This document shows positions 1 through 31,372 of a DNA stretch of 64,000 nt, piece after piece. The translations under genes and the position numbers were made by a program. Below the pieces are notes generated by a model. The model had not been told where the DNA came from. It made no database searches and saw nothing but the letters and a program-made list of their open reading frames with translations. Location: the NCBI GenBank assembly GCA_964016885.1, contig OZ024743.1, positions 291,896,001-291,960,000 on the forward strand. Direction: 5' to 3'. Position 1 is the first letter of the stretch. Each line of letters starts with the position of its first letter. This DNA comes from Eledone cirrhosa (lineage: Eukaryota).

Positions 1-1028
1 CCTTCGTGCTTTGCATTGAAGAATTGGTCAAGGGCCAATTTCGCCGCAAGCACGTCGGTCGCGATGCCTTTGCTGAGCGCCTCATCTAATTTTCTAACTA
101 ATTCTCCCTCTGCTCTATTTTTCTCTATTGCTAAAGTCTTACTAAACCTAATGGACTCTATTCTAATTGCTCTTTTCAGAGCAAACCACCACTTGTTGTT
201 GACGATGGCCCCCGTCAACGCCCGCTTAACTAGTTCGCTAATCCGGTCTCTGTAGGCCTTGCGCGCTGGTAAAGACGCGTTTAACTTCCAGTAGCCGGGT
301 CCTCGTCTATGAAGCCTATCTAAGTCAAGCACACAGATCACGAATTTGTGGTCCGTGTAGCTGACTATCTTGAATTGTGGACAGCCTATGCTAGACCTAT
401 CTATTTCCCTACAAAATACTCTATCTAGATATGATCTGGATGACCCTATGCGATTTGTCCAAGTCCACATTGGTACATTCGGGAAATCCATTCGGTACCT
501 GTCAGACAGTTCAAAACGTCTGAGCAGGTTGGTGAGACTCTTGCACCCTCCTTCCCTATCCACTAATCCCACACAATCCCAGCGTGCATCTAAGATCCCG
601 TTCCAGTCGCCCACTAACACTAAAGAGCGGGACGTTCCAAGAAAGGTCTCCAGACGCCGGAAGAAATCAGGCCGCCCTGCTCCTGTCGGGGCATAGACGG
701 CCACTAACCTGAAAGCTTGCCCGTCTCCGCTGGTCACGTCCAGCACCACCAACTTACCTTCTGGGTCCAGGAAGATGGCCCGTATGGCAAGATCCAAAAC
801 TCTCCGAAAAAGCACAGCAACTCCTCCCCCCGATCCCGGACGGCTGGGAGATGCGTACACATCGTAGCCGCCGAAGATCGGTGCGAAAGCCTGTGCTTCG
901 GAGATTCTGGTCTCGCTGATGGCCACTACATCTATGTTTAGTGACCTGAGGTCGTTGAGCAGGTGGCCCTGCTTCCATGACGACCCCAAGCCACGCGCAT
1001 TTATGCTGCCTATTCTGAGTGAGGTCAT
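1..1028 (-). CDS. ORF2 N-terminus (APE endonuclease), copy A, partial
   Basis: ATG at 1028; MTSLRIGSINARGL...ISETR...GDWN...YLDRVF...YTDHK; aligns to 5607-6627, with 6 extra in-frame nt relative to B. Confidence 0.9.
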   Translation of the reverse strand, partial: MTSLRIGSINARGLGSSWKQGHLLNDLRSLNIDVVAISETRISEAQAFAPIFGGYDVYASPSRPGSGGGVAVLFRRVLDLAIRAIFLDPEGKLVVLDVTSGDGQAFRLVAVYAPTGAGRPDFFRRLETFLGTSRSLVLVGDWNGILDARWDCVGLVDREGGCKSLTNLLRRFELSDRYRMDFPNVPMWTWTNRIGSSRSYLDRVFCREIDRSSIGCPQFKIVSYTDHKFVICVLDLDRLHRRGPGYWKLNASLPARKAYRDRISELVKRALTGAIVNNKWWFALKRAIRIESIRFSKTLAIEKNRAEGELVRKLDEALSKGIATDVLAAKLALDQFFNAKHE

Positions 1029-1062
1029 GTTGAAAAGGAGTGGAAAAGATGGGAAAGACCAC

Positions 1063-2703
1063 TTACCTTACTTCTCGTAGGGGAAGGACGGCTTTTCCAT
1101 CCTTTTCACTGCTTGTGGCCTCCTCAGGAAGGATGTCCTTATAAATCCTCCTGGAGAGTGCTTGTCGGAAGTCTCCGATGTCTTTGGGGAATTTTTGTTT
1201 TAGTGTCATGTACGTTTTCTGTGTGATGCGAGTGATTTGTATGTGTGGAGGTGGTGTGAATTTTGGGGTTTTTGTGTAGTCTTTTTCTGTGATGCTGGTG
1301 TTGTGTTGGATGTAGTGTAATAATTGCCAGTTGTGATAGACGGGGAGTGGAAAATCCTCCACAGCCGTTAGTTTTGGTTGTGGTGTGGTGGATGGTGTAG
1401 GCGCTGGTGCTAGTTCTGAAGCGTTGGGTGGTGGTGGTGTTGGTTTTGCTGGTGGTGGTAGTGGTGTTGGTTTTGCTACTGTTGCTGGGGTTGTTGCTGT
1501 TATAGTTGCTTCTGTTGTTGCTGCTACAGTTGTTGCTGCCATCTCTGCTACTGGTGGTGTTGATGGTTTTGTCACTGGGGTGGGTAGGAGAGGTGGCCTC
1601 AACCTTTTAGCCTGAGGGCAGAAAGCCCTTAGGTGGGTTCCTTCACCACAAACGACACACCTAGGTCTTCTGCCCTCGACAATTACCGTGAGGTGGCTGC
1701 CGTCAGTGAGGTCTATTACCTCTGGGATCTCCTCAATGCTTTTTTGGTCCGCTTGGATCAGGAGCTCCATCCCAGATCCGGACCAGTTTTCCTGCTTTTC
1801 TTTTGCTACTGCTATTATTTTCGTGTTGGCTTCGATGCCGGTGAGGACAGCCGCTATTAGCCAGGGAATTTCGATGGCCGGTGGAACGTGGGTCACCCTG
1901 ATCTTTACGAGTCTCTGGCCACAATAGCTTGGGACGAGTGTGAGGTCGTCACTTTTTAATGGGGCCATGGAGTGTTCTCTAGCCTCCTCTGGTGTTTCAA
2001 AGAACACATCCACGGTTCCATACTTTTGCCCACGTCTGATGTGGGTTTTTCTTGCCCACACATGTCCCAAAGCTTTTTGGATTTGGGACTCGGATGCCCG
2101 TTCCACTCGGCGCGATTTTACATTTATTGTTCTATACGACCCGGTGCACAGGCGCCGATGCTCCATTTTATTAGGTGGGGGGGTGAGGCTGACCCTGTAC
2201 CCATCTTTCTTTACCATTTGTTTGGCATTTTCTAAATCTTCTTGAGTTACCGTGAACGCTTCGAATTGTTTTGCTACGATGGCGAAACTGAGGGTCGGTT
2301 TTATAATGTCATTGTTGTTGTTGTTGCTATCGTTGATATTAATTTTATTTTCAGTTGTGGTGGTGACGTCAGTCTTCTTTGGTGGGGAAGAGTCCATTTT
2401 GCTTGATTTCATTTCGACGTCACGAGTTAATTTATTTTTTTTTTCTTTTGTTTCTGTTGTCGCGGTGGTGGTGGTGGTGGTGGTGGTTGTCGCGGTGGTG
2501 GTGGTGGTGGAGGGTTTAACACCTGCAGTCATTGGTAATGGCGGGAAATGAATGTCTGCCTGAGACAAATTTAAAATATTGCTACTGCTTATATTTTTTT
2601 TTGTGTTGGCAAACGTAGTAACATTTACAATGGTGGTGTCGGTGTGAGGTGTTATTTTGTGAGGAAGGCTTTCAGCTGCTTCGTGCAGAGGGGAATTAGC
2701 CAT
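1063..2703 (-). CDS. ORF1 (Gag-like nucleic-acid-binding protein), copy A, 546 aa
   Basis: Low-complexity N-terminus, central conserved (probably RRM-like) core, CVVCGEGTHLRAFC zinc knuckle, Pro/Thr linker, conserved C-terminal block. Confidence 0.88.
   Translation of the reverse strand: MANSPLHEAAESLPHKITPHTDTTIVNVTTFANTKKNISSSNILNLSQADIHFPPLPMTAGVKPSTTTTTATTTTTTTTTATTETKEKKNKLTRDVEMKSSKMDSSPPKKTDVTTTTENKININDSNNNNNDIIKPTLSFAIVAKQFEAFTVTQEDLENAKQMVKKDGYRVSLTPPPNKMEHRRLCTGSYRTINVKSRRVERASESQIQKALGHVWARKTHIRRGQKYGTVDVFFETPEEAREHSMAPLKSDDLTLVPSYCGQRLVKIRVTHVPPAIEIPWLIAAVLTGIEANTKIIAVAKEKQENWSGSGMELLIQADQKSIEEIPEVIDLTDGSHLTVIVEGRRPRCVVCGEGTHLRAFCPQAKRLRPPLLPTPVTKPSTPPVAEMAATTVAATTEATITATTPATVAKPTPLPPPAKPTPPPPNASELAPAPTPSTTPQPKLTAVEDFPLPVYHNWQLLHYIQHNTSITEKDYTKTPKFTPPPHIQITRITQKTYMTLKQKFPKDIGDFRQALSRRIYKDILPEEATSSEKDGKAVLPLREVR

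Positions 2704-2912: not shown

Positions 2913-2951
<39 letters not shown>
2913..2951. repeat. (AAT)13 tract: tail/target between copies B and A
   Basis: Perfect trinucleotide run 6 nt after the AATAAA of copy B (2958-2963, minus strand). Confidence 0.95.
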
Positions 2952-2953
<2 letters not shown>

Positions 2954-3213
2954 TTTCTTTATTAACCACAAGGGTTTACATAAAGTAGACATTAAGGACA
3001 GTGCAGGACAATGCAGGACGGTACAAATGGGCATTTCTGCGTGTAAAAAAACAAAAACAGAGGATGTAACAAAAATAACAATGAAAATAACAATGAAAAA
3101 TTCCCCAATAGGGGGGAGACTTCGGAGGGACATTTGTGGAGAAAGCCCAGTAAAAAGCCACAATGACCCTGACCACCAAGGCAAGTGCCCTCTCCCAGTT
3201 TTCCACCTTTAGT

Positions 3214-6200
3214 TTACAGATATATACTCAGAGTCGGCCCATTCACTCGGGCCATTCTTGCTTCTCTCACCCATCTTTCAACAAAATGCAGGGAAGAGAG
3301 CACTTCCTTCTCTACTCTGATTTTCCTTTTCAAATGAAATTTGAAAAAGTCAATCAGAGCATCACCGAAGAGGTAAGTGCTCGTCTTCAGCCCTTTCAAA
3401 CGTGTCCACCATACTATCTCTTTCGCCATGGCCACCAGACAGATAAAAACTGCCTGCCCTTCCCGGCTAAAGGAGGAGGGCGGGGCAATCCTCACGATAG
3501 ACTCAGATGATAGCTGGATCCGTCCTAAACGCGACAGCAGGTGTTCGACATAAACCCACAAGTCAGCAATTTTCGGACACTGGACGAGTGCGTGCAGGAC
3601 GGTTTCGTCGCCCTGCGCGCATCTCGGACATGCCCGGCTGACGGCACCTCCATGCCTGTAGAGTTTATCCCGAACTGGCAAGGCTCCTCGGTAGCACTGC
3701 CAGGCCAGAGATTTCTGGAAGTTGTCCATAGGCCCTGGCCCGAAAGTTCTTCCGAAGAGATTGGCTAGTTGATTTTCGTCGACGCCTAGAGTTTCCCCAA
3801 GTACGTCGTCGCTCTTCCCCTCCACTAATCCTCTATAGAACGCCGAGGTGGAGTTTCCACCGATCACATTGCCCGATTGGTCGAGGGCTGTGAGCGCCTG
3901 AAGACATTCCAGTCTCCAGGCGCTCCCTCTCGGTCTTCGCTTGACCCAGGACTGCAGCTCCGTCAAGGAAACGAGCTGGGGAAAAACGCGTCTAGCAAAC
4001 GGCGACCACACCTGATCACCGTCGAGGAAGAGGTGGAGATGTCGTAGCCTGAGCGCGTGCCTGCGCATCATCAGCCACGGCATGCCCAGCCCTCCACGTA
4101 GCGGGTGTTGACAACAGATGGACCGCCTGACCATCGGAGCACGTCCCTTCCACAAAAAGCGAAAGAGCAAACGCTCCAGCGCAGTCAGGCGAGGCTTAGG
4201 ACAAGGTACGACGGTTAGGCGGTAGCAGATGACAGACGCGATGTACGCGTTAGCCACCTCCGCTCGACCTTTCAGGGATAGCTTCCTCTCCGCCCATTTC
4301 TGGGTGAGAGAAGCCACCCTGCTCGTCACCTCGTCCCAGTTTTTGTCCATCTGGAGGTCCGGACCGAACCAGACCCCTAGCAATTTAACCGGTCCGTCCG
4401 TCCAGCGCCCGACGACGCTGTTGGACGGCATGGACCTGCCTCTCCAGGTGCCGAGCTGCAGGCCCACTGACTTTTCCTGGTTGATCATTGCTCCTGTCAC
4501 CGCTTCGTATTCTCTTAGTGTAGTGCCGATCGCCTCGATGTGTTTGACGTTCGACACCACTACGGTGACATCGTCCGCATATGCTGACACGGATCTTCCG
4601 CATCCTAGTTCGCGCGGGACTCCCCTCAACGTCTCCAGTTTGTGCAGTAATGGCTCGAGAGTCAATACGTACAAGAGGGACGAGAGGGGACATCCTTGGC
4701 GGACCGAGCGCATGATGTTGAACGGTTCCGACAGGTGACCGTTCACTCTCACCACAGAGCAGATGTCGCTGTGCATGGCAGCGATCCAGCCTCTGAAGAC
4801 GGGCCCAAAGCCAGCCGCCCTCAGGACTGCCGCTAGGTAACGATGGTCGACCCTATCGAAAGCTTTCGACTGATCTAAATTGATCAAGGACCCACCCGTG
4901 CCAGGTTCCCTAGCTACCCTCTCTACGATGTATCGCATGAGGTGGAGGTTGTCGTGGATGGATCTGTCGGGAATGGCGCATGTCTGCGCCTCTCCCACCA
5001 GACCACCAACGACAAGCGCCAACCTCTTTGCTAGCACCTTGGCCAAAATCTTAAACTCTGTGTTTAGCAGAGTTATGGGCCGGAAATTGTCTATGTTATC
5101 CCCCTTGTTCGGATCCTTTCTCAGCAGTGCCACCGCTCCTCGGCTCACAGAACTGGGAATTCTCCCGTTCTGTTGCCAGTTGCAGTAGACGTCCGCCAAG
5201 AGGCCTCCGAACAAGTCTGGCATCTGTACGTAAAGTTCATAGGGCAGACCATCCAAACCAGGCGATTTACCCCTTGTGCAGCCAGTCATTGCCTCCCGTA
5301 CTTCAGCGGCTGTTATCGGCTTTTCGCAACACCTCGCCTCAGTGGCCGAGAGCCGCGGCAGTCCGTCGAGGTAGACACTAAAGTCCATCCCTCTACCCGG
5401 CCCCCCGCTGCCCCCGAACAGCTGAGCGAAGTGTCGCTGAAAAGCTTCACACATTTGCCCGGGATCGAGTAGCATGCGCCCGTCGTGGTCCACCAAAGAC
5501 CGGATCGTGGCTTTGTTGCCACGACGCGCCTCCGCCACTCGGGCCCATTGAACGGCTTTCGTCCCCTCGTGTCTGAGAGCACGCACCCTAGCTCTGACAA
5601 CGCAGCCTTCGTGCTTTGCATTGAAGAATTGGTCAAGGGCCAATTTCGCCGCAAGCACGTCGGTCGCAATGCCTTTGCTAAGCGCCTCGTCTAATTTTCT
5701 AACTAGTTCTCCCTCTGCTCTATTTTTCTCTATTGCTAAAGCCTTACTAAACCTAATCGATTCTATTCTAATCGCTCTTTTCAGAGCAAACCACCACTTG
5801 TTGTTGACGATGGCCCCCGTCAACGCCCGCTTAACTAGTTCGCTAATCCGGTCTCTGTTGCGCGCTGGTAAGGACGCGTTTAGCTTCCAGTAGCCGGGTC
5901 CTCGTCTATGAAGCCTATCTAAGTCAAGCACACAGATCACGAATTTGTGGTCCGTGTAGCTGACTATCTTGAATTGTGGACAGCCTATGCTAGACCTATC
6001 TATTTCCCTACAAAATACTCTATCTAGATATGATCTGGATGACCCTATGCGGTTTGTCCAAGTCCACATTGGCACATTCGGGAAATCCAATCGGTACCTG
6101 TCAGACAGTTCAAAACGCCTGAGCAGGTTGGTGAGGCTCTTGCACCCTCCACCCCTATCCGCTAATCCCACACAGTCCCAGCGTGCATCTAAGATCCCGT

Positions 6201-6627
6201 TCCAGTCGCCCACTAACACTAAAGAGCGGGACGTTCCAAGAAAGGTCTCCAGACGCCGGAAGAAATCAGGCCGCCCTGCTCCTGTCGGGGCATAGACGGC
6301 CACTAGCCTGAAAGCTTGCCCGTCTCCGCTGGTCACGTCCAGCACCACCAGCTTACCCTCTGGGTCCAGGAAGATGGCCCGTATGGCGAGATCCAAACCT
6401 CTCCGAAAAAGCACAGCAACTCCTCCACCCGATCCAGGACGGCTGGGAGATGCGTACACATCGTAGCCGCCGAAGATCGGTGCGAAGGCCCGTGCTTCGG
6501 AGATTCTGGTCTCGCTGATGGCCACTACATCTATGTTTAGTGACCTGAGGTCGTTGAGCAGGTGACCCTGCTTCCATGACGACCCCAAGCCACGCGCATT
6601 TATGCTGCCTATTCTGAGTGAGGTCAT
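3214..6627 (-). CDS. ORF2: APE endonuclease + reverse transcriptase + C-terminal zinc knuckle, 1137 aa
   Basis: EN motifs NARGL, SETR, GDWN, LDR, TDH; RT motifs KSPGLDG, NFRPITLLN, LDQSKAFDRV, VRQGCPLS, YADD; CPRC..ETVLHALVQC. L1/Tx1-type architecture. Confidence 0.96.
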   Translation of the reverse strand: MTSLRIGSINARGLGSSWKQGHLLNDLRSLNIDVVAISETRISEARAFAPIFGGYDVYASPSRPGSGGGVAVLFRRGLDLAIRAIFLDPEGKLVVLDVTSGDGQAFRLVAVYAPTGAGRPDFFRRLETFLGTSRSLVLVGDWNGILDARWDCVGLADRGGGCKSLTNLLRRFELSDRYRLDFPNVPMWTWTNRIGSSRSYLDRVFCREIDRSSIGCPQFKIVSYTDHKFVICVLDLDRLHRRGPGYWKLNASLPARNRDRISELVKRALTGAIVNNKWWFALKRAIRIESIRFSKALAIEKNRAEGELVRKLDEALSKGIATDVLAAKLALDQFFNAKHEGCVVRARVRALRHEGTKAVQWARVAEARRGNKATIRSLVDHDGRMLLDPGQMCEAFQRHFAQLFGGSGGPGRGMDFSVYLDGLPRLSATEARCCEKPITAAEVREAMTGCTRGKSPGLDGLPYELYVQMPDLFGGLLADVYCNWQQNGRIPSSVSRGAVALLRKDPNKGDNIDNFRPITLLNTEFKILAKVLAKRLALVVGGLVGEAQTCAIPDRSIHDNLHLMRYIVERVAREPGTGGSLINLDQSKAFDRVDHRYLAAVLRAAGFGPVFRGWIAAMHSDICSVVRVNGHLSEPFNIMRSVRQGCPLSSLLYVLTLEPLLHKLETLRGVPRELGCGRSVSAYADDVTVVVSNVKHIEAIGTTLREYEAVTGAMINQEKSVGLQLGTWRGRSMPSNSVVGRWTDGPVKLLGVWFGPDLQMDKNWDEVTSRVASLTQKWAERKLSLKGRAEVANAYIASVICYRLTVVPCPKPRLTALERLLFRFLWKGRAPMVRRSICCQHPLRGGLGMPWLMMRRHALRLRHLHLFLDGDQVWSPFARRVFPQLVSLTELQSWVKRRPRGSAWRLECLQALTALDQSGNVIGGNSTSAFYRGLVEGKSDDVLGETLGVDENQLANLFGRTFGPGPMDNFQKSLAWQCYRGALPVRDKLYRHGGAVSRACPRCAQGDETVLHALVQCPKIADLWVYVEHLLSRLGRIQLSSESIVRIAPPSSFSREGQAVFICLVAMAKEIVWWTRLKGLKTSTYLFGDALIDFFKFHLKRKIRVEKEVLSSLHFVERWVREARMARVNGPTLSIYL

Positions 6628-6662
6628 GTTTAAAATAGAGTGGAAAAGATGGGAAAGACCAC

Positions 6663-8756
6663 TTACCGTACTTTTGGTAGAGGAGGGATGGTTTTTACAT
6701 CCCTTTTCACTTGATCGTCTGGTGAAGGGACCGTTGAATCGTCCCTTCGGCTGGTCGTCGGCTCTTCTAAGAGAATGTCTGAATATACTCTTCGATTGAT
6801 GGTTCCTCCTAGGTCCCTGAAATCACCAACTGCGTTGGGGAATTTCGTTTTAATGTTTGTGTATTGTTTCTGTGCTATTTTTAGCAGTCTTATGTTAGTT
6901 GGCGTTTTGATTGGTGCTGGTATTATGTAGTCCTGTTGTGAAATGTCTGTGTGTTCAATTATGTAAGTCATTAGTTTCTTGTTGTGTGTGTTTATTGCCG
7001 TGCATTTGTTTTTCTGGGGGTGGGGTGTGGTTCTGCTATTTTCTTGTCGTTGTTGCTGGGTGTGTGTGTTTTGTTGTTGTGTTTGCGATGTTGGTGCTTG
7101 TGGTGGTGGTGTTGAAGGTGTTGTTGGCGGTGGGGTTGTCGCCGGTGGTGATGGTGGTGCTGGTGTGGGTGGTGATGGTGTTGGTGGTGTTGCTGCTGTG
7201 GGTCTCTTTGCAGTAGACTTTACCCTTTTCTCATTTCTTTCCTCCCTTTTCAAAGGCGACGATGCGCTGCTTCTGCGTTTGTGCCTTCTTACGACCTTTT
7301 GCCATCCCTCTCCCACCTCACACTCCATGTCTGATTCTGTAAGGTCGGGGAGGGGTACCAGCTCCACTCTTTCACTTGTTGTTGTTGGTGATGTTTGCAC
7401 TGGAGTCTCTGTTGCAGCTGCATTTGGTATTGCTGTTGTTGTTGTTAATATTTCCACTGCTGCTGCTGTCTTTGATTTCCGTGGAGTGGGTATGGGTGCC
7501 ACGGACCTATCGTTCCTGGTTGCCGCTTGTCCTGTTGCTGGTAGCCGTGGAGCCGGATTCGGAAGGAGGGGGGTTTTCTCCTTTCTCAGGGTCTTCTCGT
7601 TGCAGAAGGCCCTGAGGTGAGTCTTCGATCCACAGCGAAAGCATTTCGGGCGTTTGCCCTCAACACTTATGGGCAGTTGAGTGCCGTTATCGAAGTCTAT
7701 CACATCCGGGATAGCTTCGATGCACTCCTGGTTGGTTTGGATTAGCATCTCAATGGAGGAGCCGACCCAATCTTCTCTTACTTTTTTCTGTACTTGCAGT
7801 ACAGTTGTTTTGTCCTCGATTCCGATTAGGACAGACGCGGCCAGCCAAGAAGGGGTCATTCCGGGGGGGACGTGGGTCAGTTTGACCCTCACAATTTTTT
7901 GCCCGCAGTAGGAGGGCACCAACACCATTTCCTCGCTCCTTAGGGTCACTACTGATTGGGCCTTTGCCTCCTGGGGTGTGGCAAAAAGTACGTCTACGGT
8001 GGCATATTTTTTGCCTCGGGTGATGTGCGTTTTCCGCTGCCACACAGACCCCAAGGCTTTTTGTATTTGGGCCTCTGTGGCTCTTTCCACCCTACGGGAT
8101 TTTGTACTTACTGTACGGTACGTGACCGTACAGTGCTCTTGGGTTTTGAAAAATTTTTCCGCTGCCTTGCAGATTGCTCGGTGTCCGTTCTTTGTCACCA
8201 TCTTCTTCGCTTCCTCTAATTCCTCATTTGTTATGAGGATTGTTTCCAAGTTTTTCGCAATACCTGCAAATGAGATTGGTTTTTCTCTGCTGTTGTTGTT
8301 GTCGTCAGAGCTGCTGGTACTTTTGTTGTTGCTGCAGGTACTACGACTACTGCCTCCGCCGCTGTTGCTGTGGTTGTTGTTGGTGTTGCTGCTGCTAATG
8401 CTGTTGTTGTTTATGCTGCTGGTGATGCTGTTGCGGCTGCTACTGTTGTTTTCATTGTCACTGTTGCAGTTGTTATTACGGCTGCTACTGCTATTATTCC
8501 TGACGTCAGACGAATGAACTGGGTTTTCGTATTTCCCGCACACCTGTTTCGTCGCTGTCGTCGTCGTCGTGGAGAAACCTTGCACGCTTTGCACGAGACT
8601 TTTCTTTTCTTTCGTCACTTGCGAAAGAGAAGGGAGGGAGAGAGACACATTTAAAGAAGGGAGGGAGAGAGACAATCTTCTCTCTGCTGTAGTGATGATT
8701 GAGGAAGAAGACGGAATGAGTGGGAGTGACGTATGAAATTTCTTTTTCGTAGCCAT
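6663..8756 (-). CDS. ORF1, copy B (~697 aa from first ATG at 8756)
   Basis: Ser/Asn-rich N-terminus, core homologous to copy A ORF1, CFRCGSKTHLRAFC knuckle, WQKVVRRHKRR basic patch, conserved C-terminal block. Confidence 0.88.
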   Translation of the reverse strand: MATKKKFHTSLPLIPSSSSIITTAERRLSLSLPSLNVSLSLPSLSQVTKEKKSLVQSVQGFSTTTTTATKQVCGKYENPVHSSDVRNNSSSSRNNNCNSDNENNSSSRNSITSSINNNSISSSNTNNNHSNSGGGSSRSTCSNNKSTSSSDDNNNSREKPISFAGIAKNLETILITNEELEEAKKMVTKNGHRAICKAAEKFFKTQEHCTVTYRTVSTKSRRVERATEAQIQKALGSVWQRKTHITRGKKYATVDVLFATPQEAKAQSVVTLRSEEMVLVPSYCGQKIVRVKLTHVPPGMTPSWLAASVLIGIEDKTTVLQVQKKVREDWVGSSIEMLIQTNQECIEAIPDVIDFDNGTQLPISVEGKRPKCFRCGSKTHLRAFCNEKTLRKEKTPLLPNPAPRLPATGQAATRNDRSVAPIPTPRKSKTAAAVEILTTTTAIPNAAATETPVQTSPTTTSERVELVPLPDLTESDMECEVGEGWQKVVRRHKRRSSASSPLKREERNEKRVKSTAKRPTAATPPTPSPPTPAPPSPPATTPPPTTPSTPPPQAPTSQTQQQNTHTQQQRQENSRTTPHPQKNKCTAINTHNKKLMTYIIEHTDISQQDYIIPAPIKTPTNIRLLKIAQKQYTNIKTKFPNAVGDFRDLGGTINRRVYSDILLEEPTTSRRDDSTVPSPDDQVKRDVKTIPPLPKVR

Positions 8757-8972: not shown

Positions 8973-8996
8973 AATAATAATAATAATAATAATAAT
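8973..8996. repeat. (AAT)8 tract between copies C and B
   Basis: Perfect run directly after the 3' end (AATAAATGGAATC) of copy C. Confidence 0.95.
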
Positions 8997-12200: not shown

Positions 12201-12671
12201 CGGCTACTCCCACACAATCCCAGCGTGCATCTAAGATGCCATTCCAGTCCCCCGCTAACAGTAAAGGGCGAGACGTACCCAGAAAGGTCTCCAGGCGCCT
12301 AAAGAAGTCAGGTCGTCCGGCCCCTGTAGGGGGGTAGACGGCCAGCAGTCTAAAGGCACCACCTTCGCTACTGCTCACATCCAAGTCCACCAACTTACCG
12401 TCCGGGTCCCGGAAGATCGACCATACCTCGAAATCCAGTCCTTTCCTAAACAGCACTGCCACCCCACCCCCCATTCCCGGCCTGCAAACAGATGCGAAGA
12501 TCTGATAGTCGTCGAAAATGGGGGGTAGTGCGCTCGTGTCGGAAATTATGGTCTCTCCTACGGCAATCACATCCATTTCCAGCGACCGGAGGTCGCTGAG
12601 CAGGCGACCCTGCTTCCAGGGTGACCCCCCAGGCCGCGAACATTTAAACTTCCTACTCTTAATATGGCTAT
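9275..12671 (-). pseudogene. ORF2 pseudogene (EN-RT-zinc knuckle), copy C
   Basis: Fragments 11800-12576, 11213-11833, 10985-11185, 10389-11000, 9556-10434, 9275-9763 colinear with B ORF2; YADD reads CADD; presumed start ATG reads ATA at 12671. Confidence 0.92.
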
Positions 12672-12680
12672 ATTGGTAAG

Positions 12681-14655
12681 CTAAGAGAGAGAGAGGGAAG
12701 GTTTACTTACCTCCCGGGTCTTGTGAAGGTCGGGTGGTTCGACCTCCATGGTTGGTGGGGTTTCTTTTGGGAACCTCTTTAAAAGTCTTGATGTGGGTTT
12801 CCAATTCGGGTTTCCCACGCCTTGAGGAAAGCTCTCTCGAATTTCTTTGAAGGAATTGAGTGACATTCGGACCAGAAGCAAATCTTCTGGCACGCAATAT
12901 GTGCTCATTTCAAAAATCTCCCCCTCTGTTTGAATGTCCTCACTTCGCGCTAAGAGTGCCATCAGTTTATCGTTGGCCCTTCTGACAAGCACGAAGTTTT
13001 TAACATTTTGTTGGTGTGGTTTTATTTGTTTTCGTTTTGGTGAAGGTGGTGGCGATGATTTTGGTGGTCTTGTTTCGCGTATGTCTATGTTTGTCGTAGG
13101 TGTGGTGTCTGCAATTTCAGGTATTTGTGTGTTTATTTGTACTTGTGTTTGTTTAGGTTGTTTGCGTTTCGGGGATTCTAGAGGTGGTGTCGATGTTGCT
13201 GATGATGCTGATGTTATTGGGGAAGTGTTTTCGTTAGTGGTGTCTGTATTTTTTGTTGTGTGTGTTTTTGTGTTTTGTTGGGGCTTTTTTTTGTGAGTTT
13301 TCTGTTTTTTTTGCACTTTGGGGTTTTCCTTCATCTTCGCTGCTGGAAGACAAAGGGTCTGTGTCTGTGAGTGTCTCTGTGTCTGTGTGTGCATTTATTT
13401 TGTTTTTGTCTATGTGTATAATTGGGGGGGGGGTGGGAGAGCTTTCTACGTTTTCTCCTTGGATTGGTTTTGGTGTTGGTGTAGATCCGGCTGCTTTTGA
13501 TGTTGGTGTCCGTGTTTTTGTTGATGTTGGTTTTGGTGGTGGTGGTGGTGCAGCTTTCCGTGCTGACACTGGCGTTGGCAACAAAGGAGGTTTGCGACCC
13601 CCTGCATTTTTGCGCTGAGGGCAGAAGGCTTGAAGATGCGTTGCTTCCCCGCAAACGAAGCAGCGTGGCGTTCTTCCGTCAATCATTAGTTGGATTGTTG
13701 TCCCGTCCTGCAGGCGGGAAAAATCTGGGATGTTATTCGTATCCTCCGGTTTCATTTGGAGAAGAATCTCCAAATCCATTCCGGACCAGTCCTCTCTCTC
13801 TGTCCTTTTGATGTCCAGGAGGGTGGTGTCTGTCCCCTCCTCGATTGCGCATCCCAGCAGCCACCATATGTTCATTCCTGGTGGGATGCTGGGAATGCGT
13901 ACCTTCACTGTCCTTTTACCCATATAGGACGGATGCATGATAATGCGTTCCGTTCTGGAGGGGGTCACCGAGTGCTTAATAGCGAGGGCCTCGGTTTTGA
14001 ACAGTACCGAGATGGTACCGAACTGTTTGCCTCTTGCTTTGTACTCTATGTTACTTCCGATGTACTCCAAAGCAGCCTCTACCTCTGCTTGGCTCGCAAG
14101 TTCCACTTTTCGTGTCTGCACCGAAATACATCGAAAGAGCACCGTCCTCCTTTGCATGGCCGCTATTGCCTCGTCCGGGATGGTCAGGTTTGCCCAGGAA
14201 TTCTCCCGTTTAATTAGCCTCCACGCTTTGGCCAACTGTTCGTCTTTATCGCTAATATCAATATCAATATTCAATAAGCGCTTTGTTTTTGCTGCTGCTG
14301 CAGCAAATGTGGTGTTTCTGATGCTCTTATTGTTGTTGTTGTCATTCTTGCTGTTGCCACCGCCATCTTTGTTTACATTGAAGCTGTCGGTGCTATTGTC
14401 GTTATTGCTCTGAGTTGTTGTTGTTGTGGTGGTGGTGGTGGTGGTGGTGTTGGCGGTGGTGGTGATGTCGTTTTCAGATGATACTGCTGCTATGGCAGAA
14501 GGTTGTGATGGTAGCTTTTTAGTTTTGCCTTCACATTCAGTAGAGTGGATGACAGGCATGACTGAGGCCGTCGTAGTCGTGGTGAAATATGCAGTGGCTG
14601 CCTTTAAACTTTTGATCTGAACGTTGTTTACCGTTTCAAGGTCGAAAATTTCCAT
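12681..14655 (-). pseudogene. ORF1 of copy C, frameshifted (13234-14655 plus 12681-13394)
   Basis: CFVCGEATHLQAFC knuckle and KPPLLPTP in the first frame; C-terminal block (..IRESFPQGVG) in the second frame. Confidence 0.82.

Positions 14656-14880: not shown

Positions 14881-14951
<71 letters not shown>
14881..14951. repeat. (ATA)n tract (71 nt) between copies D and C
   Basis: Perfect run after the 3' end of copy D. Confidence 0.95.
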
Positions 14952-14952
<1 letters not shown>

Positions 14953-15910
14953 TTTTCATTTATTAGCCACAAAGACCGACATGTAGCGGACAATACAAAG
15001 ACAGGGACAGTGGGGGTTTACAATAAGGTCGAGTAAAAGTGCATAATGGCAAGACTAATTTAACAATGAATATATAACATTATAAAATAAACTATGCATA
15101 AATATAACAAAATAAATTCCCCGGTAGGGGGTGGACGACCCTGGGGCGACTTGGGTACCCCACCAATCCTGACACCACCCCCACCCCCTGTGCTTCTAGC
15201 GCACCCAGGGAGAGCACCCCTCTCCTCAAGTTAGCCAGCCTATAGGCGCATGGTCAGTGTAGGCCCATTCACACGAGCCATTCTCGCCACATTCATCCAC
15301 CTTTCAGCAAATGTACTGGGGGGAAGCACTTCTCTCTCAACCCTCACCTTCCTTTCTAGGTGAAACTTCAAGAAGTTGATGAGGGATTGGCCGAAGAGAA
15401 AAGTGTCTGTCCTCAGTCCTTTTAATCTGGGCCACCATATAACCTCTTTCGCAACTGCCACCAGACAGAGGAAAATTCCTGCTCTTTCTGACCTAAGGAA
15501 GGCGGCGGGTCGATCTTCACTATGGACTCAGCCGATAGCCGGACTCTTTCCACACACGACAGTAGCTGTTTGACATAACTACAAAAGTCAGTAATGCACG
15601 GACATTGGACAAGTGCGTGCAGAACGGTTTCGTCGTTCTGTGCGCATCTTGGGTAGGTCCGTCTGACAGCACGTCCGTGCCTGTAGAGTTTATCCCGAAC
15701 CGGCAGTACCCCCCGGTAGCACTGCCAAGCGAGGTATTTCTGGAAATTCTCCATCGTCCCCGGCTCGAAAGTCCTCTGGTATAGACTGGTCAGTTCGACC
15801 TCGTCGAGGCCCAAAGCTTCTCCGAGTGCGTCATCGCACTTGCCCACCACTAAACCTCTATAGAACTCGAGAGTGGAAGTTCCACTGATCACATTGCCCG
15901 CTTGGTAAAG
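14952..15910 (-). mobile_element. 5'-truncated Tx1 copy D (same family as C)
   Basis: Highly similar to 8997-9945; breaks off at GCCCGCTTGGTAAAG next to ATAATAAT. Confidence 0.92.
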
Positions 15911-16033: not shown

Positions 16034-19000
16034 GGTTTCTGCATTGGCCACAACACGAAGAAAAACATTAGAGGCGGCAAGAACAGTACAGGACGATACA
16101 AACTGGGTTTTGGTCATGTAAACAGGTTATAACAATTTGGGTTAGAAATCAAAAGAATTCAAACAACAAAAATTCCCCCAAAAGGGGGAATCTTTGAGGG
16201 TCACTCGTGGCGAAAACCACACGAAAAATTCACGTTAACCCTGACCACCAGGGCAAGCACCCTCTCTCACTTTTCCCACTCCTCAGTCTACAGGTACATA
16301 CTCAGAGCGGGCCCGTTGATGCGGAGCAGACGCGCCACTTTCACCCAACTTTCAACAAACTTACTAGAAGACACCACTTGACTTTCCTCTTCAAGTGAAA
16401 CTTGAAAAAGTTAATAAGGGATTAGCCGAAGAGGAAAGTGTCCGTCTTCAACACTTTCAACCTTTCCCACACACAATCTCTTTCGTCATGGCCACCAGGC
16501 CGATAAAAACTGCCTGCCCTTCCTCCTCTTTAAAGGAGGATGGTGGGGCTATCTTCACAATGGAATCAGTCGATAACAGGATCTATCCTACATGCGACAC
16601 CAGCTGTTCGACATAGCCTCACAAGTCAGCAACACTCGGGCACTGAACGAGTGCGTGCAGGACGGTTTCGTCGCCCCGCGCGCATCTCGGACTGAGTCGT
16701 CTGACACTCCGTGCCTGTAGAGCTTATCCCGAACCGGCAACGCTCCCCGGTAGCACTGCAAGGCCAGGGATTTATGGAAGTTGTCCATAGGCCCCGGTCT
16801 GAAAGTTCTCTCGAAGAGAGCGAACTACTGTTCGTCTTCGACGCCCGGGGTCTCCTCGAGAACGTCGTCGCTCTTTCCCTCCACTAGCCCTCTATAGAAC
16901 GCAGAATTGGATGTTCCACCGATAATAGTGCCCAGCTGGTAGAGGTTGGTGAGACATTCCAGCTTCCAAGCGCTATCCGTCGGGCTTTTCCTGATCCAGG
17001 ACTGCAGATCCATCAAGGAGATGAGCTGGGGAAAAGTGCCTCTGGCAAACGGCGACCACACCTGTTCACCGTCAAGAAAACACCAGAGATGTCGCAGCTC
17101 GGCGCATTTTTGCGCATCATCAGCCACGGCATGCCAAGTCCTACACGCAACGGGTGTTGACAGCAAATGGATCGTCTGAACATGGGAGCACGTCCCCTCC
17201 ACAAAAAGCGGAAGAGAAGGCGGTCCATTTTGCTCAGAGTTGGGCGGGAGCAAGGTACGACGGTCAGGCGGTAGCAGATGACGGAGGCGATGTACGCATT
17301 CGCCACCTCCGCATTTGGACAGCATGGACTTGCCTCTCCAGGTGCCGAGTTGCAAGCCCACCAACCTTTCCTGGTTTATCTTTGCTCCTGTCAGCGCTTC
17401 GTATTCCTTGAGAGCGGTGCCGAGCATCTGGACGTGTTTTGGGCTCGACACCACCACGATGACGTCGTCGGCGTTAGCTGAAACGGATCTCCCGCATCCC
17501 AATTCGCGTGGGACACCCCCCATCGTCTCCTATTTCTGCAGTAACGGCTCCAGGGCCAGTACGTACAAGAGGGACGAGAGGGGGCAACCCTGGCGGGCGA
17601 GAGCATGATGCTGAAAGGCTCACAATCGAGCAGATGTCGCTTTGCTAAAAACGGGCCCGAAGCCGGCCGCCTCGAGGACCACAGTTAGGTACCGATGGTC
17701 GAACCTATCAAATGCTTTAGATTGATCCAAGTTAATCAGGGTCCCACCAATGCCAGGATCCTTAACCACCCTCTTAATGATGTATCACAGGAGATGGAGG
17801 TTGTCGTGGATGGATCTGTCCAGAATGGCGCCTCTCCAACCAGATAACCGACGACAAGCGTCAATCCCTTTGCTAACACCTTGGCTATAATCTTAAACTC
17901 TGCTTTTAGCAGAGTTATGGGCCTGAAGCTGTCTATAACGTCCCCCTTGTTCGCGTCTTTTCTCAGCAGCGCCACCGCTCGCCGGCTCACAAAACTGGTA
18001 ATGCTCCCGTTCTGCTGCCAATTGCAGTGGAAATCTGCCAAGAGGTCGCCTAACAAGTCTGGCATATACTCATAAGGCTCGTAGGGCAGACCATCCAAAC
18101 ATTGCGATTTACCGCTTCGTGCAGTCAGACATCGGTGCCCGTATTTCACCTGCTGTTATAGGCTTTTCTCTACACTTCGCTACGGTCGTCGAGAACCGCG
18201 GCAGTCCATCGAGGTATGCACCGAAGTCCATACTCCTATCCGGCCCACAGCCAATCCCGAACAATTGAGCAAAGTGCTGTTGAAAAGCCGTACACTTCTG
18301 CTCGGTTTCGAGCAGCATGCGCCCGTTTTGATCAGGCAAAGACCGTATTGTGGACTTGTTGCCACGTCGTGCCTCCTCCACCCGGGCCCATTGAACGGCT
18401 TTCGTCCTCTCGTGTCTTGGAGCACGCACACTGACAACGCAGCCTTCATGCTTTGCGTAGAAGAATTGGGCGAGTGCCAATCTCGCCGCAAACACGTCGG
18501 TTGCGATGCCTGTCCTAAACGCCTCTTCCAGCTTTCTAACTAAGTCTCGCTCTACTCTATTTTCATCTATCTCTACTCCTTTGCTAAACCTTATCGATTC
18601 TACTTTAATAGCTTTTTTCAGGGTAAACCACCACCTGTTGTTGACGATCGCACCCGTCTATGAACGCTTAATTAATTCGCTAATCCGGTCTCTGTAGGCT
18701 TTGTGCGCCGGGAAGGACGTGTTCGCCCGTTGGGGCGAAGATGGCTACTAGCCTGAAAGCATTGCCTTTGCTGCCGGTGACGTCCAGCTCGACGGACTTA
18801 CCTTCTGGGTTCAGGAAGATCCAAGCCTCGCCGAAAAACACGGCAACTCCTCCCCCCGAACCTTGACGGCTGGGCGATTTGTATACATCGTAGCCGCCGA
18901 AGATCGGTGCGAAGGCTCGTGCTTCGGAGATTTTGTCTCGCTGATGGTCACCATATCTATATTTAGTGACCTGAGGTCGTTGAGCAGATGACCCTGATTT

Positions 19001-21247
19001 CAAGATGACCCCAGGCTACATACCTTTTTACTGCCTATTCTAAGTACGGCCATGTAGGATGAGAAACGGGGTAAGTGAGAAAAGATCACTTACATTGATC
19101 GTGTGGTGAAGGGACAGCTGGTCATGGGTGTTTCCATGAGGATGTCGGTGTATATCCTTTTGGTAACCGACCCTCTGAAGTCTCCAACTGCGTTGGGGAA
19201 TTTCTGTTTTAAAAGTTTGTAATGTTCTATTTTGATTTCAATGATGCTTATGTTTGTCGGGAGAGTTCTTGGTGTTGGAGGGGTGTAATAAATTTCTCTA
19301 TGATGTCTGTGTGCTGCTTTATATGTTGTAAGAGTTCTTTACTTGCCATGTTTATAGCTGTGTACTTTTTGGGGGGAGGGGCGATTTTGTTGCCGTTTTC
19401 TTGTTGTTGCTATTGGGTGTGTTTTTTTTTGTTGTGCCTGCGATGTTGGTGTTTTTGGTGATGCTGGTGGTGGTATGGTTGGTGTTGGTGGTGATGCTTG
19501 TGGTGGTGATGGTGATGGTTATGGTGTTGCTGCAAGTCTCCTTGCAGCCTTTACCCCTCTTTGTCTGCCTTCGCTTTTGGAGGGTGAAGCTAAGGGATTT
19601 TTCTCTTTTGCTTTTTGGTGGCAGACCGTTTGCCACTTCCCTCGCGTCTCACACTCCCTGACGGAACCCACGGCGTCCGGAAGGGGCATGAGCTCCACTA
19701 CTGTTGGTGGTGGTAGTGGAGCCCGCTCCGGCGATTTTACCGCCGATGTAGCTACTGCGACTGTCGGTGTTGCTGCCACTGCTACCGCTGCTTTAGTTGT
19801 CTGTGGATTTGCTATGGGTGCCACAGGCGTTGCCCTCTTACTCACCATGGAAGGGTCTTGTAGCAGCGTATCAGGCGTAGGAAGGAGAGGCCCTACTTGG
19901 CTGTCTTCTGCGGGCAGAAGGCCCTGATTTGACTCTCCTGCCCACAGAGATAACATTTTGGGTTCTTTCCTTCCACGCTTATATGGAGTTGGAGCATTTC
20001 TGCGACGTCTATGATGTCTCGATGGCCTCGATGCACTCCTGGTCAGTCTGTATTAGCATTTGTATGCCTATTCCTGACCAGTTCTCTCTTCCCATTCTCT
20101 GTATTTGCAGAATGGTGCTCTTCTCCTCGATTCCAGCCAGTACAGACGCGGCCAGCCAAGGTATGGGCAAGTCGGGCGGGACCTAGGTCACTTTGACCCT
20201 CACAATGTTCTGCCCGCAGTAGGAGGGCACCAAGATTATCTCCTCACTCTTTAGGGTTTCCAAAGCGTGAGACTTCGCCTTTTGGTGGGTGGCGAAAAGT
20301 ACGTCTCCTGTGGCGTAATTCTTGCCTCGGGTTATGCGGGTTTTGCGGGCCCAGACGCACCCCAAGGTCTTTGGGATTTGAGCCTCCCTGGCTCTCTCCA
20401 CCCGATGTGAAATTTTGCTTACGGTGCGGTAATTCACCGTGCGCAGCTGCTGGTCTTTGAAGAAATCGGGTGGAGGTCTCAGGGAAACTCTATTGTCGTT
20501 CTTCGACACCATGGCTCTTGCGATTGCCATTTCCTCCTCCGTGACTAGCACTGTCTCCATATTTCGGGCCACACCTGAGAAATGAGTGGCCCCTTTTTCA
20601 GCGGCACCACTATTGCTGCCGCTACTGCTGCTACTGGTTTTGTTGGTGCTGTTGTTGTTGCTACTGCTACAAGCGGTGATGCTGGTGTTGTTACTGTTAT
20701 CACCTTTGTAGTTGGTTGTGTTTTTCGTGCCACCGTTGTTGTTGTTTTCGGTGCAACTTGTATCGTTGCTGTTGGTGTTGTCGTTGTTTATTATTTTCTT
20801 GTTAGTGGTGTTAATATCATCGTTGCATTTGTTGTCATTTTTTTTTGTTGTCTGTATTTTGGTTGACGCTGTTATTTTTGTAGTTGATGTGGTAATTTTT
20901 TCAAAATTAGGGTTTTCAGTGTTGTCTTTTGTTCACGTTGTTTTGGGCGGTGGCTGTCGTATGTATTTCACTAACCCTCCTGTCAACTTTTAAGCCGTTG
21001 TCAAACGACAGCAGATATATTGCTGAGGGGCGTGGCTCAGCCATGTTTTTTTTAAATAATTTTTTTTTTTAAAGTAAAATGTTCAAATATTTGTGCCAAA
21101 TGGCCCAAATATTATACTTTCCCCTTCACAGCGCAAAGTCTAAGGGCTTATATTCCTGATACAACAAGAAATATTTAACAACAAATAATTTTAACAGGCA
21201 AATAAAGAGACTTACTGGGGGCGAGCAAAAAGCGCCCGAACAGACCG
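16034..21247 (-). mobile_element. Heavily decayed full-span Tx1 copy E (third family)
   Basis: ORF1 ATG 21044, ORF1 fragments 19091-21044, ORF2 ATG 19053 with many frameshifts and internal deletions down to ~16288; 3'UTR similar to B; (ATA)n at 21248-21272. Confidence 0.9.
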
Positions 21248-21272
21248 ATAATAATAATAATAATAATAATAA

Positions 21273-26020: not shown

Positions 26021-26050
<30 letters not shown>

Positions 26051-26056
<6 letters not shown>

Positions 26057-26456
26057 AAAGAATGGAGGTGTAACACACAAGTTATTATATATTGGTAAAC
26101 GGAATAGAAAATGCTGACAAATTGTTCACAGTTGAAAAATGGTTTAATTAGGAATAAAAGAGTATTAGTGATTGTATGGGTTAGTATTCAGTTGTGGTTT
26201 TAAGTTTTTAAGTTTTTACCGGTTGCGCATTTCTAAATGCTTTTCAAAAATAATTTTGAGATAGAGTGTCCGTGCTGTTTGCTCTGATCTGATTAGTTTT
26301 GGGAATTCTACCTGTTTTTATGTTAAAAAAATGGCTCCAGCGTTATTTTTGTGTTGTAAAAATGCTTGTGGTCAAAACAATTTTGATTGGTCGGTAGAGG
26401 TCATGTGAATGTAAAAAGTTGATTTTGCGCCAAGACTGTTTTTATGTTAAAATGTT
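26051..26456 (-). repeat. 3' pseudo-LTR of the PLE
   Basis: Matches 30866-31270; I saw only one substitution (AATGGAGG vs AATAGAGG). Confidence 0.9.
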
Positions 26457-26571
26457 AGAAAAGTGGCTCCAGCAAAGATTATGGTCAAAACAATTTTGAT
26501 TGGTCGGTAGAGGTCATGTGGATAAAAAATTGGTTTTGCGCCAAGATTGAGAAATGACTCTTTCACAACAA

Positions 26572-26617
<46 letters not shown>

Positions 26618-27021
26618 TAGTAGTAGTAAGGTATTCGATGCTGCGACAATAGCCACCAGCGATGTGTGTCAAATGGCTATTAAGATAAGTGTGTGTGTGT
26701 GTGTGTGTGTGTGTGCGTACATACACACAGCAGAGTCATTCGAAGGTCAAAAGATATTTTTCAGCTTTTGTCTTATACGGAGAAGTGCGCGTGTGTGTGT
26801 GTGTGTGTGTATAAGTCTCTTTGTATGTTGATGTACGCGTGTGTATGTGTCTGTGTATATATGTGTGTGTGTGTGTGTGTGCGTGTGTGGGTGGACCAGT
26901 ATTTTTTTCCCCCCCTGGTAAAATGGTGTACATTATTCGATTTTTTCAGTAAAATCGGTTCTCTTAATAGAACATCAACAATCTTAACAATAAAAGGTGT
27001 GAAATGATATTCACTATATAC

Positions 27022-29568: not shown

Positions 29569-30839
29569 TGGTTGGGGTAGAGGGGTTGTCTGCTGATGTT
29601 AAGTGGTCTCCTGTGCTTGTTATATTCCTTGTTGTTGTAAAATGTGGTTCGGGTTGGTGGTTGTAGATTGAATGGGGTGTTCCTGTACTGCGAGTATGGG
29701 TGTGTGTTTCTATGTGCCATGTTGTATTGTGGTGTTATAAGTGGCCTACGTTGTTGGTTGTATCGTGTGGTGTGGGTTTGTTGTGTATTGTGGAAGTGAG
29801 AGTTGAGAAAATGGTAATTACCTTGCTGTCCCCTTGAGGCGGGGAAGTTGTTGCATCTATCATGGCGGTGGTATCTTTTCCCTATGTTTGACGATGAGGA
29901 ATCCGCGTAGTAGTTGAGTGATTTGGTATGGTGTCTCCTTGAAGGGGGAAAGTTGTAAATGTCATTCTGGGGGAGATGATTTCTTGGGTTTTTGTTCCTT
30001 CTTATGGTAGCGAGGTTGGGAAGTTCATCTTCGGTGTGGTGCTTCCTTCTTCGTTTGTTTGAGGCTTGGGGGTTTGAGAAGTTGTTGTGCGGTTCAGTTA
30101 TGGGTTTTCCTATTTTTATGAACGGGTTATTGGAGGTGTAATCCGTTTGAAAAGTCGATTCATTGTGTAGGAACCAAGCGGCACTTTTTTCCCAGCGTTG
30201 AAGGGATTTCAGTTCTTCTCTGTTGCAGTCCCCTTTCCATAATTTGGAGATCTTCTCTACCTTGGGGCCTTCAGTTTTGTTGTTGATTTCCAGGAGGATC
30301 TCTTCATCGATGGTTTTGATTTTTTCCTCATTTGTCTGGGCCCTCAGTTTAAGAAGTTCAATTTCTGTCTTCATTTTTTCCAATGCCATTCTTTCCCTAA
30401 GGTGTCTTTGAGGTTCGGGTTCATTTGGAATGGACTTTATTTGTAGTTTACGGGGGAGAGTTAGAGGGGTTGAGTTAAGCCATTTTTCATATATCTCTGC
30501 TTTGTTGTGATTTTGTATCATCTTCCAGAATGAGAACTTTCTGTCTCTGAGGGATTTGTTCCATTTTGGAATTGTTCGAATTTTCATTTTGTGTGAATCA
30601 ATCTCACATGGTTCTTCGTTGGTTTTTCCTGGGTTGGTAGTAGTGAACATAGTTTGGATAGTATCGCAAAGGTTTTGGAGTTTGTCGCCGATTTCGGAGG
30701 GTTTGTATCCGGTGGCGGTTTCCTTATTTGTGGAGTCAAGTTTGTCGACCAGCAAAGATAGGTTGGTGTTGATTTTCTTGAGTTCCTGTAGGATCTCTTC
30801 ATTTGAGTTGATGAGGGTTGTATCCGTTTTTGTTGGCAT
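29529..30839 (-). CDS. PLE upstream ORF1, coiled-coil N-half and basic N/H/R-rich C-half (~436 aa from ATG 30839)
   Basis: Long intact ORF beginning just inside the 5' pLTR; heptad-like EEILQELKKINTNL and ALEKMKTEIELLKLR segments; overlaps the RT frame. Confidence 0.8.
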   Translation of the reverse strand: MPTKTDTTLINSNEEILQELKKINTNLSLLVDKLDSTNKETATGYKPSEIGDKLQNLCDTIQTMFTTTNPGKTNEEPCEIDSHKMKIRTIPKWNKSLRDRKFSFWKMIQNHNKAEIYEKWLNSTPLTLPRKLQIKSIPNEPEPQRHLRERMALEKMKTEIELLKLRAQTNEEKIKTIDEEILLEINNKTEGPKVEKISKLWKGDCNREELKSLQRWEKSAAWFLHNESTFQTDYTSNNPFIKIGKPITEPHNNFSNPQASNKRRRKHHTEDELPNLATIRRNKNPRNHLPQNDIYNFPPSRRHHTKSLNYYADSSSSNIGKRYHRHDRCNNFPASRGQQGNYHFLNSHFHNTQQTHTTRYNQQRRPLITPQYNMAHRNTHPYSQYRNTPFNLQPPTRTTFYNNKEYNKHRRPLNISRQPLYPNHFLDTAHRYRQTK

Positions 30840-30865
30840 TTTCTGTATCTCGTGTGAGGATATGA

Positions 30866-31270
30866 TAGTTAAAAGAATAGAGGTGTAACACACAAGTTAT
30901 TATATATTGGTAAACGGAATAGAAAATGCTGACAAATTGTTCACAGTTGAAAAATGGTTTAATTAGGAATAAAAGAGTATTAGTGATTGTATGGGTTAGT
31001 ATTCAGTTGTGGTTTTAAGTTTTTAAGTTTTTACCGGTTGCGCATTTCTAAATGCTTTTCAAAAATAATTTTGAGATAGAGTGTCCGTGCTGTTTGCTCT
31101 GATCTGATTAGTTTTGGGAATTCTACCTGTTTTTATGTTAAAAAAATGGCTCCAGCGTTATTTTTGTGTTGTAAAAATGCTTGTGGTCAAAACAATTTTG
31201 ATTGGTCGGTAGAGGTCATGTGAATGTAAAAAGTTGATTTTGCGCCAAGACTGTTTTTATGTTAAAATGT
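30866..31270 (-). repeat. 5' pseudo-LTR of the PLE
   Basis: Direct repeat of 26051-26456. Confidence 0.9.
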
Positions 31271-31304
31271 TATTGTCGCAGCATCGAATACCTTACTACT
31301 ACTA

Positions 31305-31372
<68 letters not shown>

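Follow-up and report, generated by a model that had tools for sequence, protein, structure and literature searches.

How one LINE RNA yields much ORF1 and little ORF2 product is only partly understood, and the known answers are translational. Outside the LINEs, U1 binding at the major donor and at SD4 of HIV-1 is known to stabilise the unspliced RNA or to block early polyadenylation, with the donor located in a hairpin. The closest described case is the Ty1/Copia element EVD of Arabidopsis, with a conserved donor at which U1 has a dual role and, when bound to the retained donor, prevents premature termination of the unspliced RNA (PMC5580714). Human L1 likewise produces an L1-group full-length RNA with functional splice sites, and its spliced RNAs can leave genomic copies (SpIREs); in that account, the donors concerned lie in the 5' UTR, and the 63-nt inter-ORF spacer is described by two stop codons, with no donor named there (PMC5860796). 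In human cells, an unused 5' splice-site motif causes RNAs to be retained in the nucleus and degraded, and intronless mRNAs are depleted of it (PMC4380460); a further paper deals with the motif as a signal of this kind (PMC9074902). No report of a conserved donor at the end of a LINE ORF1 was found in the main text of openly accessible full-text papers, and the word "splice" does not occur in the text of PMC7140322.

Sequence comparison establishes such a U1-complementary site, under constraint at the nucleotide level, at the ORF boundary of one LINE lineage of an octopus, Eledone cirrhosa. The octopus element shares with EVD the nature of a retroelement, the U1-type donor at the end of the region for the structural protein, the unspliced genome RNA and a putative role of U1 beyond splicing, whereas EVD, an LTR element with a single ORF, has a conserved acceptor with an early poly(A) site linked to it and needs the splice to acquire a stop codon (PMC5580714). 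The octopus element is a two-ORF LINE whose ORF1 has its own stop, and of the features of the splice-and-terminate arrangement of Ty1/Copia, only the donor at the end of the structural region was found, not a conserved acceptor or an early poly(A) site. In contrast to human L1, the donor lies at the end of ORF1, and no spliced copy was seen among those screened. The consensus is the same as that of the nuclear retention motif in unspliced RNA, but is kept here in an RNA that has to leave the nucleus for translation. Retroviruses finally possess known acceptors and an export protein, neither of which is known for the octopus element.

The analysed stretch of 64,000 nt, called the window in the following, contains four minus-strand LINE copies that follow one another head to tail, with (ATT)n runs between them (Table 1). 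Their ORF2 contains the Pfam domains PF03372, PF00078 and PF13966 (APE endonuclease, reverse transcriptase and C-terminal zinc-binding region, zf-RVT), and its closest solved structure is L1 ORF2p (E 3e-52), while a CCHC knuckle (CX2CX4HX4C) is read from the translations of the separate upstream ORF1 of copies A, B and C. These features and the insertion into microsatellites agree with the L1/Tx1 group. ORF1 gave no match in Pfam, and Rfam no match within the window. A preference for repeat targets is typical of the Tx1 clade. The label Tx1 rather than L1 is based on the first reading of the sequence, on this target preference and on the listing of L1-Tx1 as recently active in Octopus vulgaris (PMC13282606). 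The 3' ends are followed by (ATT)n in 40, by (TATC)n in 33 and by other sequences in 59 of 132 cases, some of the loci overlapping. Lineages G and H (L223-L226, L234, L271) end mostly in (TATC)n and families A, B, C and E in (ATT)n, a candidate for a target switch inside one young lineage. The 3' UTRs of all families (2952-3213; L223-L240) retain a hairpin-like word, CCCC-TAT-TGGGG, a second word resembling TTTACWCG and, ahead of AATAAA, a stretch they have in common, and these are candidate recognition signals for ORF2p. The window also contains a Penelope-like element with RT and GIY-YIG domains (27244-29391, minus strand) and an upstream ORF of 436 aa (29529-30839, minus strand), flanked by direct and inverted repeats (26046-26651 / 30860-31858), as well as a further RT-bearing ORF of 600 aa (35055-36857, plus strand).

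Table 1. Positions of the LINE copies and of their parts in the window (position 1 is its first nucleotide).
Feature	Position	Strand	Remarks
Copy A, motif AAG/GTAAGT	1061..1069	-	phase 2; ORF1 stop TAA within motif
Copy A, spacer	1029..1060	-	32 nt, pyrimidine-rich, C+T 81%
Copy A, ORF1	1063..2703	-	546 aa; knuckle CX2CX4HX4C
Copy A, ORF2 start	3..1028	-	APE endonuclease; continues past window edge
Copy A, second donor-like site, in endonuclease	752..758	-	counterparts 12393-12399, 18796-18802
(ATT)n run between B and A	2913..2951	.	similar runs 8973-8996, 14883-14951, 21249-21272 bound tandem copies
Copy B, motif ACG/GTAAGT	6661..6669	-	phase 2
Copy B, spacer	6628..6660	-	33 nt, pyrimidine-rich
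Copy B, ORF1	6663..8756	-	697 aa
Copy B, ORF2	3214..6627	-	1137 aa; APE endonuclease, reverse transcriptase, zf-RVT
Copy B, 3' UTR	2952..3213	-	AATAAA at end; acceptor-like tract missing from other families
Copy C, motif GAG/GTAAGT	12705..12713	-	phase 0; ORF1 reads through, stop TAG 12683-12681
Copy C, spacer	12672..12704	-	33 nt
Copy C, ORF1	12681..14655	-	broken by frameshift
Copy D	14920..15910	-	C-family 3' end, 5'-truncated; without junction
Copy E, motif AAT/GTAAGT	19088..19096	-	AAG/ in other E copies, phase 1
Copy E, spacer	19054..19087	-	34 nt
Copy E, spacer tract, reverse complement of donor	19070..19076	-	predicted to pair back onto motif

A preliminary description of this DNA had reported GTAAGT at the end of ORF1 in all four copies, and the motif is indeed found exactly, beginning at 1066 (AAG/), 6666 (ACG/), 12710 (GAG/) and 19093 (AAT/) of the minus strand and followed by spacers of precisely the lengths given (32, 33, 33 and 34 nt), which are pyrimidine-rich as described. 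The ORF2 start codon behind the spacer of copy C is ATA, with ATG in other C copies. Three of the accompanying statements need correction. The surrounding sequence, said to differ among the families, is alike at the junctions of A and B, which are 95.8% identical (1-1110 versus 5606-6711) through spacer and motif, so that these two copies are not independent here. The TAA inside the motif, said to be the ORF1 stop of A, B and E, has this function in A and B, but not in E: other E copies carry AAG/GTAAGT in phase 1 and read G-K-stop, and copy E of the window has a 17-nt deletion of its own, which lies about 25 nt upstream of the motif and shifts the frame, as well as a G>T change at -1. Finally, the distance to ORF2 is bounded rather than fixed, since G/GTRRGT lies 28-47 nt before the ORF2 start in the scored lineages and about 51 nt before it in lineage F. 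Copies A and B share ORF2, the spacer and the last ~45 nt of ORF1, while their ORF1s differ (1063-2703 versus 6663-8756) and show 39% identity in the C-terminal domain; an ORF1 may have been exchanged, with the motif carried along with ORF2.

The motif proved to be more general than had been noted. Junctions were collected by protein searches of the genome followed by inspection of the adjoining DNA, and represent a sample rather than a census, because the best 150 matches and 30 loci were taken per search. Among the 306 junction matches listed for the own genome, 248 distinct junctions remain when duplicates are removed and 32 loci picked for an altered donor are left out, and 212 of these contain GGTRRGT at most 62 nt before ORF2, compared with about 2% in equally long control windows (15/715 in ORF2 and 5/373 in ORF1). 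Of the 36 junctions without the motif, most belong to older copies with a single change or a deletion; also among them are two 5'-truncated copies, a LINE of another type, a false match and a distant, decayed locus (L423). In the window as a whole, GGTRRGT is not enriched (24 observed versus 24.75 expected); the excess over chance is in the position of the motif and not in its overall frequency there. Because the junctions are related by descent, the informative count is that of the lineages, 14 of which have an intact motif among the matches listed (A, B, C1, C2, C3, E, G, G2, H1, H2, I, J, K and L), together with the changes of reading frame described below. They form a young, L1/Tx1-like LINE group inserted in microsatellites, with ORF2 DNA 68-99% alike (measured to B, the rearranged C3 left out). 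Lineage F, with an ORF2 94% like that of B and an unrelated spacer, shows a motif remnant in both copies seen, each lacking a different single base.

One account of this conservation is that the motif has no function of its own and is kept by the stop codon and by common descent. It is in line with the relatedness of the lineages, whose third positions are unsaturated, and with the observation that the phase-2 variants TAA, TGA and TAG are all stops, and that T+6 starts the stop in phase 1. As called from the homologous ORF1 frame in 13 lineages, however, the motif is in phase 2 (Arg-stop) in seven (B, G, G2, H2, I, K and L), in phase 1 (Gly-Lys/Glu-stop) in three (C2, E and H1) and in phase 0 (Val-Ser) in three (C1, C3 and J), where it contains no stop at all. 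On the ORF2 tree, which serves as a proxy because ORF1 can recombine, this distribution requires at least five changes of the ORF1 phase (with F left out and C3 absent from the tree), and the motif also survives indels directly beside it. The stop codon is therefore insufficient as an explanation, as the preliminary description had argued, and the constraint at the nucleotide level persists across the reading frames of ORF1. Positions G-1, G+1, T+2, G+5 and T+6 are unchanged in all 14 lineage representatives, and the only variation is between A and G, at +3 (H1, H2) and at +4 (I and one J copy), while indels are concentrated on either side of the motif and spacer length is variable. Within families, variants common to at least three copies are absent from the seven motif columns in four of five families, compared with several in the flanking columns, and family E has shared variants in two of the seven. 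The second, endonuclease donor-like site of A, C and E is not kept in G, G2, H, I, J, K and L and provides an internal control. Descent alone can conserve single sites, because 112 of 359 degenerate third positions of ORF2 (31%) are near-invariant over 13 lineages; the weight of the argument is carried by the frame changes and the phase-0 lineages. With the remnant kept in lineage F next to an unrelated spacer, absence of function seems improbable.

The nature of the constraint is suggested by the match to U1. The U1 genes of the genome start with the exact complement of the motif, and the motif is complementary to this 5' end in the manner of a 5' splice site, as had been proposed, at 7.5-10.5 of 11 positions. 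Ranked by U1 duplex among the 158-356 GT sites of the element, it comes first in 12 and second in three of 15 representatives. The U1 genes are organized in tandem arrays with a period of 2,674 nt (G000:C2:180973544-180995099 and C1128).

The explanation favoured here, with a probability of roughly 0.4, is that the motif offers the U1 snRNP a landing site on the full-length element RNA, in most cases with no intron being removed, and U1 binding appears as the best fit among the alternatives offered by the preliminary description. U1 would bind the motif during transcription and would help the unspliced 6-kb Pol II transcript to reach completion or stability by protecting it from early termination. 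The ORF boundary would have been chosen as the sole internal place nearly free of coding constraint, consisting of the low-complexity tail of ORF1 and the spacer, and the pyrimidine tract behind the motif might, as folding predictions weakly suggest, fold onto the G/GU core and later hide it from splicing and nuclear retention. Such a role on unspliced RNA would be analogous to EVD, where U1 at the donor blocks premature termination (PMC5580714). The landing site has a weak point, as the lineages were not found to share an early poly(A) signal that it could suppress: no conserved cryptic signal was found, no A[AT]TAAA in ORF2 is common to more than 4 of 13 lineages, and in lineages H1 and L the hexamer is missing from ORF2 and from the final 1.5 kb of ORF1, while those of the other lineages are found at unrelated places. 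The element would also have to escape the nuclear retention and decay seen in human cells (PMC4380460), and the tight placing of the motif at the end of ORF1 is explained at least equally well by real splicing.

A regulated donor that is truly spliced, from the end of ORF1 to a family-specific acceptor in ORF2 or beyond, is a close, if somewhat less probable, alternative. The splice would remove the ORF2 start codon and create an RNA dedicated to ORF1, as for Gag of Ty1/Copia, with the unspliced RNA serving as ORF2 mRNA and template. The motif always occupies the last ORF1 codons before the ORF2 start and is the strongest donor of the element, and the conserved site of Copia is itself the donor, at which U1 has both roles (PMC5580714). 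An acceptor with consistent frame logic, however, was found conserved neither next to the start codon nor in ORF2 nor in the 3' UTR. The best candidate, a pyrimidine-preceded YAG at nt ~415 of ORF2, is present in 12 of 13 lineages and has the highest mean pyrimidine content, but is equalled in this by two other sites, coincides with a Leu-Val/Ala codon pair, one of many places with conserved third positions, would keep the frame in phase-1 lineages but not elsewhere, and is not followed by a conserved poly(A) signal. The acceptor-like tract in the 3' UTR is strong in A/B, but its AG is missing in E, G and C2, and a long intron reaching to the 3' UTR was dropped on these grounds.

Processed copies were sought with a 17-nt anchor taken from the end of the family-B ORF1, which occurs at 2,278 places in the genome; the next base is G at 2,256 of these and a different one at the remaining 22, and in 10 of the 2,256, the G precedes a base other than T. 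All 32 donor-altered copies were inspected; 30 have point or one-base changes and two have deletions, neither of which brings the donor up against an AG, so none of the 2,278 B copies is a splice product, in a screen blind to joins starting with GT and to changed anchors. These missing copies weigh little against splicing, because an RNA without ORF2 or without the 3' end would rarely be copied back. In the E copy L076, a stretch from the donor to an AG at ORF2 codon 7 is absent, with one base more than in a clean splice product, which counts in favour of splicing. Four further E loci without the endonuclease start (L063, L069, L070 and L089) are deletions or an inversion rather than splice products. 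Contigs of four runs, which may all be DNA, show no joint at the donor when compared with B, either among 15 of 23 joints or in three further ones; because contigs lose rare forms, this counts neither for nor against splicing. The switch between spliced and unspliced RNA envisaged in the preliminary description agrees with the U1-type conservation at the nucleotide level, but for its splicing part no conserved acceptor and, among the copies screened, no processed B copy was found.

The same screen bears on a mini-intron of 50-55 nt, whose removal would delete the ORF1 stop and the ORF2 start and fuse the ORFs in frame. The first YAG at a distance of at least 45 nt is in frame with the donor in A/B and C2, but only in 3 of 13 lineages altogether, about the third given by chance, and in the G subfamily, which is young and intact, the first 88 nt contain no YAG. 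If ORF2 protein were made from such an RNA in cis, new copies should be intronless, and none of the 2,278 screened is. The fusion is largely refuted by the frame count and the absent fossils, and must be considered very unlikely.

The spacer itself offers weak evidence for the masking hairpin of the landing-site model. Folding predicts G-1 and G+1 to be paired with a probability of at least 0.9 in 13 of 14 lineages, the partner usually being the pyrimidine tract that follows the motif, but RNAalifold found no pair in a consensus structure over the 14 lineages, native and swapped tracts differ at p = 0.04 with an opening cost similar to that of ORF2 controls, and register tests are flat (66-78 of 112). 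The predicted pairing of motif and tract may be an effect of composition. Family E is an exception, as its spacer carries the reverse complement of the donor, predicted to form a 9-bp stem in an intact E copy (hairpin z -3.8 and -2.5 in two copies), and 35 of 38 E copies have one of three variants that preserve the pairing via G-U.

The spacer can also be regarded as an ORF2 translation signal, for re-initiation or internal entry, in which the motif only resembles a donor and, with the tract and a strong start context, holds the ribosome or a pyrimidine-tract-binding protein. The bounded distance to the start codon, the pyrimidine tract (69-82% C+T) and the CCAAC-type start context kept behind it are consistent with this possibility, and so is a different recurring word, CATGATM, before ORF2 of distant relatives (18/72 compared with a background of 27/1,169 ORF2 windows), which indicates that the region before ORF2 holds cis signals in this group. 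However, the tolerated changes and the invariant G-1 track pairing with U1, and the distance ranges from 28 to about 51 nt, which makes a mere translation signal rather unlikely.

The distant L1/Tx1 relatives, with 22-29% endonuclease identity, delimit the range of the motif: GGTRRGT was found within 130 nt of the ORF2 start in none of 72 (from 80 loci, eight of which have no usable upstream stretch; several are near-copies), and many have an ORF1 overlapping the ORF2 start, in both of which they differ from the lineages with the motif. CATGATM, often within a palindrome, lies 26-95 nt before ORF2 in 18 of these relatives (L290, L296, L305, L308, L310, L314, L318, L319, L323, L333, L335, L336, L341, L344-L346, L348 and L352), many of which have overlapping ORFs, and is possibly the re-initiation signal of another lineage.

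Viral contigs contained no relative, and a word-indexed search with ORF1 gave zero matches. Those protein relatives that are named belong to Octopus and Argonauta. With a profile built on the C-terminal domain of ORF1, 22 proteins were found, 20 of which were inspected; seven (P0005, P0007, P0012, P0013, P0015, P0016 and P0017), including one from Argonauta hians (P0017 being from Argonauta) and one from O. sinensis, carry G-K, G-R or G-E where ORF1 ends or close to it, while the remaining ones have no such ending or are fragments. These endings are as a phase-1 motif would give, an indirect indication, read from proteins alone with the codons unseen. The conserved domain of ~90 aa near the C-terminus of ORF1, shared with Octopus and Argonauta proteins, has no Pfam match. 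Another protein, P0001 (a tectonic-3-like model of O. sinensis), contains a piece of this endonuclease, ~60 residues long, that breaks off at ...FLDPE, the place of the second donor-like site of copies A, C and E, possibly by exonisation or as a modelling artefact.

The U1 landing site and a regulated ORF1-only splice are not mutually exclusive, and the landing site is tentatively favoured. A further-reaching scenario, possible but less likely than not, is an octopod LINE that evolved a U1-controlled switch at its ORF1/ORF2 boundary independently of Ty1/Copia and the retroviruses, with a hairpin-masked donor that is partly spliced to an ORF1-only RNA and stays intact in the genome-length RNA. 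If such a switch exists, the host spliceosome would set the ratio of ORF1p to ORF2p, and thousands of young copies would, through this donor, supply host transcripts with ORF1 exons as well. A donor kept under selection in an RNA that needs to stay unspliced points to a nuclear, U1-based layer, and control of its own RNA by a U1 landing site would, if true, be new for a LINE. With elements that are young and intact, and more than 2,200 copies of the junction in a single family, thousands of strong donors across the octopus genome could also alter host transcripts.
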